Shown here: positions 1,919-11,472 of the stretch, piece after piece
How the letters are laid out: every line of letters starts with the position of its first letter
How positions within the stretch are numbered: the stretch's first letter is position 1
NCBI GenBank assembly: GCA_021789895.1
Contig: JAJYIU010000005.1
Location: 43,239 to 75,238 of the forward strand
Direction: 5' to 3'
Length of the DNA: 32,000 nucleotides
Origin: Acidobacteriota bacterium
Lineage (GTDB): Bacteria; Acidobacteriota; Terriglobia; Terriglobales; SCQP01
Notes under the pieces: generated by a model
Told to the model about the DNA's origin: nothing
Database searches by the model: none
What the model saw: the letters and a program-made list of their open reading frames with translations, nothing else
Position numbers and translations under genes: made by a program

Positions 1919-4900
1919 TTAATTCACATTCAGCGTCAGCGCCTGCGATTGGCTAACCGAGCCGGACGTGGCCGTAACCGTCAGCGTATAGCTGCCGGAG
2001 GGCGTGCCGGGCACGGAATTCGATCCGGAACTGCTGCTGCTGCTGCATCCCGCCATTCCGAGCGCGACCAAGGCGATGCCGGTCCAACCCAGGCGGCGCA
2101 GCCAGCCACCGGCTGCGGCCATGCGGCGGCGTCGGCTGGCCAGCAGCAGGCTGAGTGCGCCCGCCAGCCACAATCCCCATTGCGCCGCCAACGGCCAGGG
2201 TAGCCGCGGAGCGCGGGGCGGGGCGATGGGCAAGGCCGTCGGCGCGGTGGTCGCTACGGAAACGGTGGCCTGCACCGCGCTTGCATTATTAATGCTCACC
2301 GATGCCGGGCTGACGCTGCAGGTCGCCTTCGATGGCGCGCCCGAGCAGCTCAGGTTCACCGTGCCGGTAAAGCCGCCCGTCGGCGTGATCGAAAGTACGT
2401 AGGAAGCGGTCTGGCCGGCATTCACCGTGGCGCTGGCGGGCGTGGCTGTAAGCGTGAATGCAGCCGGCGTATTCAGCGCCGGTATGATCCAGGCGCCGCG
2501 GCCGTGAGTGGCGGCGATGACGTAATTGGCGCCGGCCTGGGTGAAGTTCAGTTGCAGAATCGCCGCTGCGGGCAGGCCGCTGCCCAACTGCTGCCATTGT
2601 TCGGTCGCCCCGCCGGCCCCGCCGTCCTGGGTAACGAAGACGCCAACGTCGGTTGCAACGTAGATGTTTTTCGGCGCATTGGGATCGATCAGGATCCAGT
2701 TCAGCGGACTGTCGGGCAGATTGCCGGTGATGTCGGTCCAGGCGGTGCCCGCGTTGGTGCTCATGAAAATGTGTTGCCCGCCGCTGCCCGTTCCTTCATT
2801 AACGCCGAAATCCATCACCCCCACGAAAATGGTTTTCGAATCGGTGGGCGAAATCGCAATCGAGCTGAGCGGGCGCTGGTATTTGGTGGCCACTAGCGGC
2901 AGCGGAGAGGCGACTTGCCAGGTGGGCAGTGTGCCGGTGGCGCAATTGGCGCTGCTGATGCAGGTGGCATTGGTGGTGTAGGCGACCTGGCCATCGTCGG
3001 TGACTGCATACAGCGTCGCGGAATCACTGGGCGCTTGCGCCAGCGCGGTTATGTAATACCCGTTGTTGGCGCAGGTGCCGGTGCCGCTGCCGCCGCTGGT
3101 CAGATCGGGGCTGATCGCCACCCAGCCCTGGCCGTCGCTGCTCGGCATGCTGGGCCCTTCCCAGACCCGGCAGGTGCCGAGGATGATCTGCGTGTTTTCA
3201 TTGGGCAGAATCTGATAGGGAACGTAAAAATCCGCGGCGTCTGTGATGAAATTGTTGTCCACGACTACGTTCGGATTGCCTGCATTGTTATAGAAGCTGT
3301 CGGCGCCGGTCGAAATGTTGATCTGGCCGCCTTGGTCGGAACGGGTCAGCGATACGCCGTTATTCTCGGAGAAATACTGATCGGTCATCACCCCGTTGAC
3401 CGACGCCAGCGTGGTGGCGGAAAAACCGCCATCGCCGAAAAAGTCCGCTGTCCATTGCAGCGGAGACGACGGTGCTTGCGGCGGATTGAACCCGTCGCCG
3501 CTGATGGCGGCGTCGTTATCCTGCGATCCGCCGAAATAAACCCCCGCGGTGACCGGATCGCCGACGACGCTGTAGAACTGGATCGTGCCCAGTCCGGTGT
3601 TGAGGTCGGTCCAGTTCGTGCCGGCATCGCTGGTGCCCCAGATGCCGCCATCGCAGCCGATATACCAGGTGTTCGCATTCACCGCCGCCAGGGCGTGCTG
3701 ATCCGCATGCACGCTGCCGTTTCCGTAGGCATTGGTGAGATCGGTCCAGGTGGTGGTCATGCCATTGACCGTGGTCGCCTGCCAAAGATCGATCCCGCCT
3801 ACGACCAGCGCATTCGAGCCCGGCGGCGCGAAGATTGGCTGATCGTAATCGCCTTGAGGGCCGGCGCCGGCGTCGAATAGCGTTTCGCCGCTGGTGCAGT
3901 TTTGCGCTGTGGTCGAAGTGCAGGTCGGCGCCGTGATGGGCGTCCATGAGCCGCCGTCATTGATGGATTCCACCAGGCCCGTATCGCAGCCGCTGGTCTG
4001 GCCGGCCGCGCAGGCATTGGGAGCCGAAAGCGCCCCATTCGAGTCGGCAATGACGGCAAAAATCGCCCCGGAGCGGGCCGCCATCGAAACGCGATAAAAA
4101 TTATCGTAGGTGCTGCTGTTGATGCCGGGCGGGACTTTTGCGAATGGACTGGCCGTCAGCGCCGTCCAACTGGCGCCCTGGTTGGTGGATTTATAAAACC
4201 CGGCGCCGCGGAATGCGGCCAGATAGGCTTTGGTCGTGGCATCGTAAACCAGATCGGTGCAGGAATAGTTGTTGCCCGAAGTATCGAGCACTTCCTCAAC
4301 CAGCGACCAGGTATCGCCGCCGTCGGTGGAACGGTAAATGCCGCGCACGTAGGGCGTGTTGTAGGCGACCGCGGTGGTCGCCACCGCCGCCAGCAGGATC
4401 TGTGGATTCTGCGGGTCCACCAGGATGCGGGAAAAGCCCGCGCCCATGAATTTTTCCAATCCACCGTCGGCCGAGCTGACCAGCTTCCAGGTGGCGCCGC
4501 CGTCGTGCGATACCAGCAGCCCCATGCCGTAATAACTGTCGCCGGCGTTATCCGGCTCGCCCGTGCCGGCCACGATCGTGGGTTTGCCGGCGACCGTGCT
4601 GCCGGCGGAAGTCAGGGCGATGGCGCCCACGGACAAGGTGGCTTGGCCGTCGGTGAGCGGCTTCCAGGTGGCGCTGGCCGACTGCGCATTGGTGGAGACC
4701 CAGATTCCGCCATAGGCGGCGCCGAGATAAACCGTATTCCCGCTGGCATCGTCGTTCAAATCGACCGCCAGCGCGGTCACGCGCCCGGAAACATTGTTAA
4801 AAAAGTAATCATATTCGGGGCTGGGCCCAAGTTCCGTCCAACTGCCGCCGGTCGGGGAGGGGCCGTATGGCCGCTTCATGCTGGAAATGTGGCGGTTCCA

Positions 4901-5149
4901 ACCGCTGCCCACATAAGGCATACGCCGGGCATGCGCCCAGGCCAGGCGCTGGTGCTCGGCGGCGGGCATCGCATCCAGGCTGCGCCGGCCGCGCATAAAA
5001 AACGCCTGCCGCTGGCTGCGCAGGTCCTGGTCCGGCTTCGGCCGCTTCAAGTTCCCGCTTGGAGTGGATTGCGCCGCCATCGCGCCGAACAGCCCTACTC
5101 CTAATAAAACCCGGGGAACTGCCGAATGAAGCCAGGTGGATCTATTCAT
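1919..5149 (-). CDS. Large secreted BNR/sortilin-like beta-propeller protein with Ig-like domain, C-terminal transmembrane segment and internal lipobox-like motif
   Basis: 1076 aa. Signal peptide MNRSTWLHSAVPRVLLGVGLFGAMAAQS; repeated propeller segments (GAAYGGIWVSTNAQSASATWKPLTDG, YRSTDGGDTW, YKSTNQGASWTAL, FMSTNAGTAWTDITGNLP); an Ig-like segment FTLTATPASATVNAGQTASYVLSITP; then WLAGALSLLLASRRRR. Confidence 0.8.
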   Translation of the reverse strand: MNRSTWLHSAVPRVLLGVGLFGAMAAQSTPSGNLKRPKPDQDLRSQRQAFFMRGRRSLDAMPAAEHQRLAWAHARRMPYVGSGWNRHISSMKRPYGPSPTGGSWTELGPSPEYDYFFNNVSGRVTALAVDLNDDASGNTVYLGAAYGGIWVSTNAQSASATWKPLTDGQATLSVGAIALTSAGSTVAGKPTIVAGTGEPDNAGDSYYGMGLLVSHDGGATWKLVSSADGGLEKFMGAGFSRILVDPQNPQILLAAVATTAVAYNTPYVRGIYRSTDGGDTWSLVEEVLDTSGNNYSCTDLVYDATTKAYLAAFRGAGFYKSTNQGASWTALTASPFAKVPPGINSSTYDNFYRVSMAARSGAIFAVIADSNGALSAPNACAAGQTSGCDTGLVESINDGGSWTPITAPTCTSTTAQNCTSGETLFDAGAGPQGDYDQPIFAPPGSNALVVGGIDLWQATTVNGMTTTWTDLTNAYGNGSVHADQHALAAVNANTWYIGCDGGIWGTSDAGTNWTDLNTGLGTIQFYSVVGDPVTAGVYFGGSQDNDAAISGDGFNPPQAPSSPLQWTADFFGDGGFSATTLASVNGVMTDQYFSENNGVSLTRSDQGGQINISTGADSFYNNAGNPNVVVDNNFITDAADFYVPYQILPNENTQIILGTCRVWEGPSMPSSDGQGWVAISPDLTSGGSGTGTCANNGYYITALAQAPSDSATLYAVTDDGQVAYTTNATCISSANCATGTLPTWQVASPLPLVATKYQRPLSSIAISPTDSKTIFVGVMDFGVNEGTGSGGQHIFMSTNAGTAWTDITGNLPDSPLNWILIDPNAPKNIYVATDVGVFVTQDGGAGGATEQWQQLGSGLPAAAILQLNFTQAGANYVIAATHGRGAWIIPALNTPAAFTLTATPASATVNAGQTASYVLSITPTGGFTGTVNLSCSGAPSKATCSVSPASVSINNASAVQATVSVATTAPTALPIAPPRAPRLPWPLAAQWGLWLAGALSLLLASRRRRMAAAGGWLRRLGWTGIALVALGMAGCSSSSSSGSNSVPGTPSGSYTLTVTATSGSVSQSQALTLNVN

Positions 5150-5370: not shown

Positions 5371-5625
5371 ATGTTTCTGATTTGGTGGATCATCGTCGGC
5401 TTGATTGCCGGTTGGGCCACGGGCAAGATCATGCGCGGCGCCGGTTATGGCCCGCTAATGGATATCGTGGTCGGCATCATTGGAGCGGTCATCGGCGGCT
5501 GGATCATGAGCGCTTTGGGCGGCCCTGCCGCCGGCGGCCTGATCTACACTATCCTGGTCGCTATTCTGGGGGGCGTCATATTGACTGTTATTGTCCGCGC
5601 GATTAGCGGCCGGCGAACGGTCTGA
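5371..5625 (+). CDS. GlsB/YeaQ/YmgE family (transglycosylase-associated) small membrane protein
   Basis: 84 aa, MFLIWWIIVGLIAGWATGKIMRGAGYGPLMDIVVGIIGAVIGGWIMSALG; GGGAGG Shine-Dalgarno-like sequence just upstream (cacgggaggatctATG). Confidence 0.88.
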   Translation: MFLIWWIIVGLIAGWATGKIMRGAGYGPLMDIVVGIIGAVIGGWIMSALGGPAAGGLIYTILVAILGGVILTVIVRAISGRRTV

Positions 5626-5659
5626 GCGCGCCCGAACCTAAATCACAGGAGGCATTTCC

Positions 5660-6271
5660 ATGCCTATTGCCTGGCAAGCATCCCTGGCCGAAGCCCGCCG
5701 CCAGGCGGCGCAGATCCATCGCCCGGTCCTGCTCGATATCAGCGCCGCGCCGCGTTGAGGCGGCTGCGTTCAGATGGATACCGGGTCGTATCCACCGCCA
5801 TCCGTCAGCCGCTTCATCGAACAAGAGTTTGTGCCCGCGCGCGTCAACCTGATCAGCGGCGATCCGAGCCAGGCTGCCGGCTTCCACGTCCTTTGGACGC
5901 CTTGTTTTCTGGTCCTCGAAGGCGAGCGTGAATGCTATCGCAATTACGGCTTTCTGCCGGCAGAAGATCTTTCGGCCCTGCTCAGGATTGCCTTGGGAAT
6001 GCGGGCGCTGGGCTTGGGACGCTACGATGAAGCCGCCGCCTGGCACCACGAGGCCGCCGACGGCTTTTCTCAGAGCCCATTCCGCCCCCAGGCCCTCTAT
6101 TGGGAAGGTGTAGCGCGCTATAAGCAGAGCGGGGATTTCACCGCCGCCCGTGACATTTGGGAACGCTTGGCGCGCGAGGCCCCGGCCAGTACCTGGGCCC
6201 GCCGCGCCAGCTTCGCCTTGCGCCCGCACGAAGCCGTCTCCCAAACCGCCACCAATCCCGATAACCAATGA
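5660..6271 (+). CDS. Thioredoxin-like protein with TPR-like C-terminus; candidate selenoprotein with Sec at in-frame TGA 5756-5758 (redox motif UGGC)
   Basis: Consensus AGGAGG precedes ATG 5660. The frame reads MPIAWQASLAEARRQAAQIHRPVLLDISAAPR-[TGA]-GGCVQMDTGSYPPPSVSRFIEQEFVPARVNL...TPCFLVLEGE...YWEGVARYKQSGDF... to the stop at 6269-6271. The ATG and the post-TGA ORF (5774..6271) are in the same frame, so no frameshift is needed. The TGA takes the place of the first Cys of CxxC. Confidence 0.8.
5756..5799 (+). promoter_or_regulatory. Candidate bacterial SECIS element directly downstream of the in-frame TGA
   Basis: TGA (5756-5758), 16-nt spacer, then perfect 7-bp stem TGGATAC (5775-5781) / GTATCCA (5788-5794) with 6-nt loop CGGGTC (5782-5787). 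A second helix is possible: GGCGG (5759-5763) with CCGCC (5795-5799). The loop begins 23 nt after the TGA and has G at its second position. Confidence 0.7.
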
Positions 6272-6552
6272 CCCTGGCTGCCTTCTTCGTGCTCCTGGTG
6301 ATTGCCGGAGTCTGCGGCGCCCTGGGCGCCGGATTGGGCGGCTATTCCCACGCCGGCTGCCTGGGATCCATCCTGCTGGGTTTTATCGGCGCCGTGCTCG
6401 GCTCGTGGCTGGCCACGACCCTGCGCTTGCCGGCGGTGCTGGTGGTCGCCGTCGGCGGCGTGCCGTTTCCCGTCTTTTGGGCGGTGGTCGGCGCAGCGCT
6501 GTTCGTCTTCGCGCTGGGCCTGCTGCGCATCGGCGCCGCGCGCCGTAGTTGA
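6268..6552 (+). CDS. Small GlsB/YeaQ-like multi-pass membrane protein
   Basis: 94 aa, MTLAAFFVLLVIAGVCGALGAGLGGYSHAGCLGSILLGFIGAVLGSWLATTLRLPAVLVVAVGGVPFPVFWAVVGAALFVFALGLL; start overlaps the upstream stop (ATGA). Confidence 0.8.
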   Translation: MTLAAFFVLLVIAGVCGALGAGLGGYSHAGCLGSILLGFIGAVLGSWLATTLRLPAVLVVAVGGVPFPVFWAVVGAALFVFALGLLRIGAARRS

Positions 6553-9431: not shown

Positions 9432-9507
9432 TGGTGGAGCTGGCGGGAGTCGAACCCGCGACCTCTTCAATGCCATTGAAGCGCGCTCCCAACTGCGCCA
9501 CAGCCCC
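9432..9507 (-). tRNA. tRNA-Ala (anticodon GGC), 76 nt including encoded CCA
   Basis: Reverse complement GGGGCTGTGGCGCAGTTGGGAGCGCGCTTCAATGGCATTGAAGAGGTCGCGGGTTCGACTCCCGCCAGCTCCACCA. The acceptor stem pairs (GGGGCTG/CAGCTCC), the anticodon stem is CTTCA/TGAAG with loop ATGGCAT, and the T-loop is GTTCGACTC. Confidence 0.97.
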
Positions 9508-9807
9508 ACTTGGATGGCAACTCACCTATTCTGACGGAAATCGCGCTCGGGCGCAATGCTGCCGGCGTTCGGTTTGCCCGCCGCGATCGCCTCCGCCGCG
9601 CACGTCTTGCGCCGCGCGCGGGGCCTGCTTTGCGGCGGCCGACTTCGGTATAATAGGCCGTGCCCTGGAGCCGAGGCCGCTCTCTTACCCCATCTCCTGT
9701 CCCGCACGGGAGCCCGGGCCATCGGCGTCTCCTTCGAATCCGTTTCCCATTCCCCCGCGTTTTCTGCCAACCTGCGCGCGCCCGGCCGCGGCCGGAGGAG
9801 GCGGCGA

Positions 9808-11472
9808 ATGAGCTGTAAATTTATCTTCATCACCGGCGGGGTGGTCTCCTCGCTGGGCAAGGGACTGGCGGCCGCTTCCATCGGCGCGCTGCTGGAAAGC
9901 CGCAAACTCAAAGTTTCGCTGCTCAAGCTGGATCCTTACCTCAACGTGGATCCCGGCACCATGAGTCCCTTCCAGCACGGCGAGGTCTTCGTCACCGACG
10001 ACGGCGCCGAAACCGATCTCGATCTCGGCCATTACGAACGCTTCACCCACGCCAAGCTGACCCGCGCCAACAATCTCACCGCCGGCCGCGTTTATGAACA
10101 GATTCTGGCCAAGGAGCGGCGCGGCGATTACCTCGGCAAGACCGTCCAGGTGATTCCGCACGTCACCGATGAAATCAAAGCCGCCATCCGCAAGGTCACC
10201 GAGGACGTGGACATCGCCATTGTCGAGATTGGCGGCACTGTCGGCGACATTGAATCGCTCCCTTTCCTCGAAGCCATCCGCCAGTTGCGCCAGGAAGTCG
10301 GCCGCGAAAACGCCATCTTCGTGCACGCCACCCTGGTGCCCTACATCGCCACCGCCGGCGAGCTGAAAACCAAGCCCACCCAGCATTCCGTCCGCGAGCT
10401 GCGCGAGATCGGCATCCAGGCCGATATCCTGCTGGCGCGCAGCGACCGCGAATTGAGCCGGGACCTGAAATCCAAAATCGCGCTCTTCTGCAACGTCGCC
10501 GAAGACGCGGTCATCACCGCGCGCGACGCCGAGAGCATCTATGAGGTCCCGCTGCTGTTCGCGCGCCAGTCGCTGGATGAGTTGATTTTGCGCTACCTGC
10601 ACCTCCAGGCCCCGGCGCGCGACCTCGCCGCCTGGGAAAGCCTGATCTGGCGCATGCGCCATCCCCAGGGCGAAGTGGCCATCGGCGTCGTCGGCAAATA
10701 TATCGAGTACGAAGACTCCTATAAGAGCCTCAAGGAAGCGCTGGTGCACGGCGCCCTGGCGCATTCGCTGCGCCTGCGCCTGGAGTGGATCGAGGCCGAA
10801 GACATCCAGCCCGCCTCCGCCGCCGCCCGCCTCGCCGGCGTGGATGGCGTGCTGGTTCCCGGCGGCTTCGGCAAGCGCGGCATTGCCGGCATGCTGCATG
10901 CCATCACCCATGCCCGCACCCGCGGCGTTCCTTATTTCGGCATCTGCCTGGGTATGCAGTGCGCCGTCATCGAGTTCGCCCGCAACGCCTGCGGCCTGGC
11001 CGACGCCGACAGCTCCGAATTCAATCCCGCCACCCCGCACCGCGTCATCTACAAATTGCGCGAGCTGCGCGGGGTCGAGGAAATGGGCGGCACCATGCGC
11101 CTCGGCGCCTGGCCCTGCCGGCTCCAGTCCGGCTCGCTGGCGGCGCTGGCCTACGGCGGCACTGAAATCAGCGAGCGCCACCGCCATCGCTACGAGTACA
11201 ACCGCGAATACGAACCCCTGCTCACCGGCGCCGGCCTGAAAATCACCGGCTCCAGCCCCGACCAGACCTACGTCGAAGTGGTCGAGCTCGAGGGCCATCC
11301 CTGGTTCCTCGGCTGCCAATTCCATCCCGAGTTCAAATCCCGCAGCCTGGAACCTCACCCCTTGTTCCGCGATTTCGTCGGCGCCGCGCATGCCTGGCGC
11401 CGCGCCCATCGCCCCGCCGCCGCTGCCAATGCTCTGCCGCCGCACGCCGCCGTGCTGGCCAGAGAACCCTGA
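9808..11472 (+). CDS. pyrG: CTP synthase
   Basis: [79 protein letters not shown]...; C-terminal glutaminase [19 protein letters not shown]. Start reassigned from 9556 to ATG 9808 after GGAGGAGG. Confidence 0.97.

Follow-up and report, generated by a model that had tools for sequence, protein, structure and literature searches.

The stretch of DNA analysed here (the window, 32,000 nt of contig JAJYIU010000005.1 from an Acidobacteriota bacterium) carries on its forward strand a gene of 203 codons (5660-6271) with an in-frame TGA at 5756-5758, which by alignment with homologous proteins would be read as selenocysteine (Sec) at the first position of a CxxC redox motif. The start codon, ATG at 5660, lies 7 nt downstream of a Shine-Dalgarno sequence, AGGAGG (5647-5652), and an AGGAGG or GGAGG-like motif was found at the equivalent place in all the orthologues. 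From this ATG, which is in frame with the TGA, the reading frame is open as far as the stop codon, TGA 6269-6271. The database version of the protein covers only 5774-6271 (P0001, 165 aa, 100% identical). Directly upstream there is a gene for an 84-aa transglycosylase-associated membrane protein of the GlsB/YeaQ type (5371-5625, forward strand). The neighbour before it, on the reverse strand, encodes a protein of about 1000 aa with Sortilin/Vps10 repeats (1919-5149); both are conserved as neighbours in the closest relative (L001/L020). Downstream, the ATG of a 94-aa ORF without Pfam match (6268-6552, forward strand) overlaps the stop codon of the gene (ATGA), and in L001, too, a small ORF (95 aa, 3524-3811 of that sequence) comes after the orthologue; the two genes may be co-translated partners. 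Further along, a tRNA-Ala(GGC) at 9432-9507 (reverse strand) is found just upstream of a CTP synthase ORF (9556-11472, forward strand), whose Pfam domain starts no earlier than residue 88; the true start is thus probably further downstream.

The encoded protein has an N-terminal thioredoxin fold with the putative redox centre U-G-G-C, followed by a C-terminal tetratricopeptide (TPR) domain. When Cys was substituted for the TGA, Pfam Thioredoxin_7 (PF13899) matched residues 4-84, across the TGA, with 29.3 bits against a cutoff of 27, and PF13098 remained slightly under its cutoff (25 vs 27). TPR_16 covers residues 111-176 and the TPR models together residues 111-183. The best PDB match was the thioredoxin 2lst, whose CPYC aligns onto U-G-G-C, so that by this alignment the TGA occupies the position of the nucleophilic Cys of the CxxC redox centre, the classical site of bacterial selenocysteine. 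The resolving Cys of the UxxC motif (TGC, 5765-5767) is invariant in the alignment. The NCBIfam models for thioredoxin-like selenoproteins NF041383, NF041199 and NF045694 all scored far below their cutoffs (24.5, 16.7 and 17.6 bits against 275, 300 and 805, respectively). As side observations on the codon context, the Arg codon preceding the UGA (5753-5755 in the window) is CGT in all eight orthologues with Arg at this place, despite the G+C-rich genes, and a purine follows the UGA without exception (G in 11 sequences and A in two). Both features may reflect a context requirement for recoding.

A search with the full-length protein matched nine proteins, and all nine are database entries of 153-165 aa that begin at the Met after the TGA; in the contigs of these entries a separate "32-aa gene" has been called immediately upstream. 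Genome and metagenome scans added further Acidobacteria/Terriglobales MAGs, a Gemmatimonadaceae MAG (36% identity) and metagenome contigs with 34-43% identity. Among distinct relatives with DNA available for reading, 19 of 19 have TGA at the aligned codon, even at a protein identity as low as 34%, and in all the orthologues an ATG with a Shine-Dalgarno sequence precedes it by 32 codons. The only exception to the TGA in the scans was L025, a distant DsbD-like Cys protein. A search with P0009 gave 82 clusters, nearly all of about 151 aa and beginning with MDTVTYP, and the TGA was present in the two members of this set for which the DNA was read (L034 and L035). The conservation of the TGA across clades rules out a pseudogene. 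A reassigned genetic code was also considered and is ruled out because the same gene terminates at TGA; among the orthologues, the stop codon is TGA in half and TAG or TAA in the remainder.

Full-length homologues have Cys at this position. A HMMER search with one of them, P0055, retrieved 462 clusters at E<=1e-10, and among the best 150 of these 462 there were 67 truncated forms and 70 full-length proteins (180-225 aa). The first Cys of CxxC is located at the TGA position in 50 full-length homologues. No relative turned up in a scan of viral contigs, and tblastn against plasmids gave no match. P0055 itself (C-E-G-C) is the sole full-length Cys form that retains the heptapeptide of the Sec forms, MDTVTYP, and may represent a recent Sec-to-Cys conversion with a relic of the selenocysteine insertion sequence (SECIS).

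A short distance after the TGA the gene contains a perfect 7-bp stem, in which TGGATAC (5775-5781) is complementary to GTATCCA (5788-5794); the loop between the two arms is CGGGTC (5782-5787). In the mRNA, the 5' arm UGGAUAC corresponds to the codons AUG-GAU-AC and the 3' arm GUAUCCA to (UC)G-UAU-CCA, with conserved cores at 5776-5781 and 5788-5793, respectively. Counted from the UGA, the stem starts after 16 nt and the loop after 23 nt (5759-5781). The loop has G at position 2, followed in the family by G or U, and is the presumed contact of SelB. A previous sequence-only reading had described the TGA, the stem, the loop with G at its second position and the 23-nt spacing, and all these coordinates are correct. 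Folding of 5750-5815 with RNAfold, which that reading had proposed as a check, kept the 7-bp hairpin in both the MFE (-28 kcal/mol) and the centroid structures, and this fold is more stable than expected (z = -2.54; 2 of 200 shuffles were equally stable). The isolated 20-nt hairpin has -7.6 kcal/mol and the segment from the UGA through 5799 has -15.7 kcal/mol.

The same reading considered a perfect heptamer repeat at this place unlikely to be incidental. For the repeat alone this does not stand, since there are 54 perfect 7-bp hairpins with loops of 3-10 nt in the window and nine of its 284 TGAs (3.2%) have one with the loop 16-37 nt downstream. By itself the hairpin is only mildly unlikely and therefore weak evidence. 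With similar hairpins after about 3% of the window TGAs, the case must rest on context and comparison, and it is from the comparative data described below that the claim is recovered.

The geometry can be compared with the consensus model of bSECISearch, reportedly that of Zhang and Gladyshev in 2005. As quoted in PMC13188914, the bacterial SECIS consensus combines a loop of 3-9 nt with an upper stem of 4-16 bp; the first or second loop base, or both, is G, usually with G or U as the next base, the spacing between UGA and loop is 16-37 nt, and the MFE is -7.5 kcal/mol or lower. The window hairpin agrees with all four of these quoted points, of which the sequence-only reading had named the short loop, its G and the spacing: its loop of 6 nt and stem of 7 bp (6 bp in the conserved core) are within range, the G at loop position 2 is followed by another G, and the spacing of 23 nt falls inside the interval, with the energy (-7.6 kcal/mol) only just under the limit. 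It departs from the model in that the common pairing between the loop bases N1 and N2 is not evident (C...U in the window and C...A in the consensus) and in that the present family has no conserved lower helix. No match to the Rfam SECIS families was found, either in 5600-5950 at E<=10 or in the whole window at the gathering threshold, where only chance hits appeared. The lack of a match is no surprise, given that bacterial SECIS elements are heterogeneous (PMC12013277), and their models are described as incomplete in that paper and in PMC13188914.

The relatives preserve this arrangement with little variation. The 23-nt spacing between UGA and loop is identical across the 13 aligned relatives, and 13 of 13 sequences have G at loop position 2. 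The relatives have the loop CGUGAC, which is the family consensus, or CGUGUC; the window, with CGGGUC, departs from this consensus at two positions. Six pairs (5776-5781 with 5788-5793) form in 100% of the 13 sequences (12 distinct), and RNAalifold returns as consensus exactly this 6-bp core hairpin. The outer U-A pair, 5775/5794, forms in only eight of the 12 distinct sequences, so that of the 7-bp stem originally described six pairs belong to the conserved element and the seventh does not. Within the core, an A-U pair at alignment columns 31/40 becomes G·U in four of the 12 distinct sequences (5/13 of all) by a Thr-to-Ala change. At columns 29/42 an A-U pair is replaced by G-C in one sequence, L031, where GAT has changed to GGT (Asp to Gly) together with a silent change of TAT to TAC, a double change that in the alignment is compensatory. 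Thus the comparison of orthologues that had been suggested as a test of stem pairing gave a core paired in all of them, with one compensatory pair and G·U wobbles, but the formal signal is weak: 34-39 of 500 shuffles reach the observed values, and true covariation for the hairpin type of the window comes from one sequence (L031) plus the wobble changes. The modest statistics follow from a stem that hardly varies.

Codon usage is more informative in this respect. In a codon alignment of 12 orthologues we compared all pairs sharing an amino acid and found synonymous differences in 47.9% of 6427 comparisons gene-wide. Over the five hairpin codons D-T-G-S-Y (GAT RCC GKG WCG TAT) there were none in 264 comparisons. 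Only three of 173 five-codon segments had a score of zero and all three lie over the hairpin; likewise, the whole gene has seven columns with an invariant codon, and five of them are these consecutive hairpin codons. Outside the hairpin these genes use GAT for 31% of their Asp residues and TAT for 41% of their Tyr residues; inside it both codons are used in 12 of 12 sequences. Pairing accounts for the fixation of GAT and TAT, since in the stem the third base of each is paired with the second base of the other. L034 and L035, whose proteins are only 38-45% identical to the others, nevertheless have an identical 20-nt element, ATGGATACCGTGACGTATCC.

The Cys forms provide the contrast at the protein level. 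Among the forms truncated at the TGA, 108 of 149 read M[D/G][T/A]VTYP. The aligned heptapeptide appears in 50 different versions in 50 CxxC proteins, and at its position 2 Glu is as frequent as Asp, although Glu codons (GAR) would break the stem. Sec forms do accept two substitutions, Asp to Gly and Thr to Ala; each exchanges an A that faces U for G, so that the position still pairs, as G·U. The argument for selection on the RNA is carried by two lines, the suppressed synonymous change and the difference from the Cys forms, and as read from these alignments they show that the hairpin is selected at the RNA level and that UGA and hairpin are conserved together. The conserved core of the putative SECIS is accordingly delimited as the 6 bp GGAUAC/GUAUCC with a 6-nt loop and G at position 2.

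The sequence-only reading had taken the hairpin for a SECIS-type element correctly spaced from its TGA, and this is upheld by the position of the TGA at the catalytic Cys, the synonymous suppression, the compensatory and wobble changes, the peptide variation of the Cys forms and the agreement with the four points of the quoted consensus. The hairpin 5775-5794 is thus very probably the bacterial SECIS of a thioredoxin-fold/TPR selenoprotein gene (5660-6271). It might be objected that it lies wholly within conserved codons, that T, Y and P are also common residues in the Cys forms, and that a hairpin of similar quality follows about 3% of TGAs by chance, all of which would fit a mere by-product of a needed peptide motif, MDTVTYP, with no function at the RNA level. 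Such a by-product is very unlikely, because it would leave unexplained the absence of synonymous differences over the hairpin (0/264 against 0.48 elsewhere), the fixation of the disfavoured codons GAT and TAT, and a heptapeptide that varies freely once Cys is present (50 versions in 50 proteins); moreover, the tolerated residues are just those that allow G·U pairs, and L031 couples its D-to-G change with the silent TAT to TAC. Another explanation would treat the TGA as a true stop of a 32-codon upstream ORF, with re-initiation at AUG 5774 regulated by the hairpin to give the 165-aa product. Gene callers do start about 100 database entries at this AUG, which lies within the stem and has a G-rich stretch 10-15 nt upstream. 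However, the 32 upstream codons are homologous to the thioredoxin strand beta-1 and active site, are conserved as protein while free at synonymous sites, and end at a TGA located exactly at the catalytic Cys of the homologues; a product beginning at 5774 would be devoid of the catalytic residue, and a second clade of relatives has Leu for this Met and no conserved start at this point. Re-initiation therefore appears extremely improbable.

It could also be that the functional SECIS is larger and that the small hairpin is insufficient alone. Two extensions can be drawn. In one, GGCGG immediately after the UGA (5759-5763) pairs with CCGCC (5795-5799), a candidate lower stem noted by the sequence-only reading as a bulged extension; in the other, a long-range helix joins 5757-5768 with 5802-5815 (CG.UCAGCCGCUUC). 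Energies speak for both, since the structure with the bulged extension evaluates to -15.2 kcal/mol, compared with only -7.6 for the 20-nt hairpin, and the MFE fold of 5750-5815 (-28 kcal/mol) pairs the UGA region with 5802-5815, as the closest relative, L001, is able to do likewise. Conservation speaks against them. The GGCGG/CCGCC register can pair in the window but is complete only there, and across the relatives it is paired in 53% of cells. Most relatives have CAGCC at the 3' strand, and their GGCUG/CAGCC register (three bases further 3' on the 5' side) is paired in 78% of cells without covariation. Only the window and L001 have the long-range helix, and RNAalifold retains the 6-bp core only. 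A larger element is therefore very unlikely, and the 6-bp core hairpin is the preferred description of the SECIS.

By analogy with the established bacterial pathway, SelB carrying GTP and Sec-tRNA(Sec) would bind the apical loop and upper stem. When the UGA at 5756-5758 enters the A site, the hairpin would stand at the mRNA entrance and hold SelB there, so that Sec-tRNA(Sec) could out-compete release factor 2, and translation would continue to the stop codon at 6269-6271, giving a 203-aa protein with the redox centre U-G-G-C. SelB binding, insertion of Sec and the presence of selA, selB, selD and selC in the genome are what this pathway predicts. Neither selA, selB, selD nor a tRNA-Sec was found within the 32-kb window by ARAGORN and Pfam scans of 20 ORFs, which gave tRNA-Ala only and housekeeping genes only, respectively. 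Acidobacteria are documented users of Sec (PMC1794560, PMC12013277).

A known element of this kind is the SECIS of E. coli fdhF, a 17-nt minihelix bound by SelB. Its apical hairpin, which has G and U among the loop bases and a fixed position relative to the upstream UGA, serves as the tether for SelB. The element described here would share the same working principle of a loop hairpin downstream of the UGA, but its stem begins about 16 nt after the UGA (about 11 nt in fdhF), the two sequences are not similar, and no bulged U is predicted. The protein itself resembles the bacterial UxxC selenoproteins with thioredoxin fold, in which Sec replaces the N-terminal Cys of CxxC; the relatives match PF13098, and a broad "PF13098 UxxC" family is already in the literature. 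It differs from them by the TPR domain that follows the thioredoxin domain, and in the literature searched no bacterial thioredoxin-like selenoprotein with a tetratricopeptide domain was found. The JGI annotation of P0061 points to the "chaperedoxin" CnoX/YbbN, which may be similar in architecture, with an N-terminal thioredoxin fold and then TPR repeats. With 203 aa the present protein is much shorter than CnoX/YbbN; its UxxC is intact, and the two sequences do not match significantly.

The second clade is Gemmatimonadaceae-like (L024, L026-L029 and L032, with the TGA at L024:3091, L026:1412, L027:1597, L028:1597, L029:1229 and L032:25) and encodes C-A-R-L-[E/D]-A-E-V-Y-P instead. Its predicted hairpin has an upper stem CUCGGC/GCCGAG and a loop UGGAW starting 16 nt after the UGA, with a lower stem that begins directly after the UGA. 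Pairs form in 92% of cells among five distinct sequences. In the lower stem, two pairs show compensatory changes from G-C to C-G, through AGC/UCG Ser codons and changes in the downstream codons. Of 500 shuffles, only 2-5 perform equally well. The only part in common with the hairpin of the window is the 3' strand, formed by the Tyr-Pro codons UAUCC. The same 3' strand with different 5' partners indicates that the partner strand would have been exchanged during evolution.

Another gene with an in-frame TGA was noticed in L014, 1.1 kb from its orthologue of the thioredoxin-TPR gene. This AhpC/TSA peroxiredoxin gene (L014:3356-3931) has been called as two ORFs of 77 and 88 aa and is actually a single frame, with the TGA (at 3587) at the position of the peroxidatic Cys (FTPG-U-K). 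It is followed by a potential hairpin GGCC.AUCA-GUC-UGAU..GGCC, with a loop, GUC, that here too begins 23 nt downstream of the UGA. Judging from this arrangement the gene is probably a second misannotated selenoprotein, and L014 would then have a minimum of two candidate selenoproteins that share this geometry.

For the locus studied here, the annotation would be corrected from a 165-aa hypothetical protein to a 203-aa selenoprotein, and roughly a hundred more clusters in the databases show the same truncation. The mechanism is that of the textbook pathway and opens no new mechanistic question, but a well-supported SECIS example is added from the Acidobacteriota. Given that there is no curated NCBIfam selenoprotein model for it and that the literature searched contains no thioredoxin-TPR bacterial selenoprotein, the family may be uncatalogued. 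We tentatively put forward, as a plausible but far from settled proposal, a new family of cytoplasmic selenoproteins with thioredoxin fold, UxxC and TPR domain, widespread in soil Acidobacteriota and Gemmatimonadota and systematically annotated as truncated "TPR proteins" of about 150 aa. In the same tentative proposal its SECIS would have been rebuilt in evolution, one clade having recruited the M-D-T codons as 5' partner of the 3' arm UAUCC and the other clade, for the same 3' arm, the G-C codons beside the UGA, with the loop moved from 23 to 16 nt after the UGA. Together, the Sec and Cys forms provide a natural experiment in which an RNA signal freezes both codons and amino acids.
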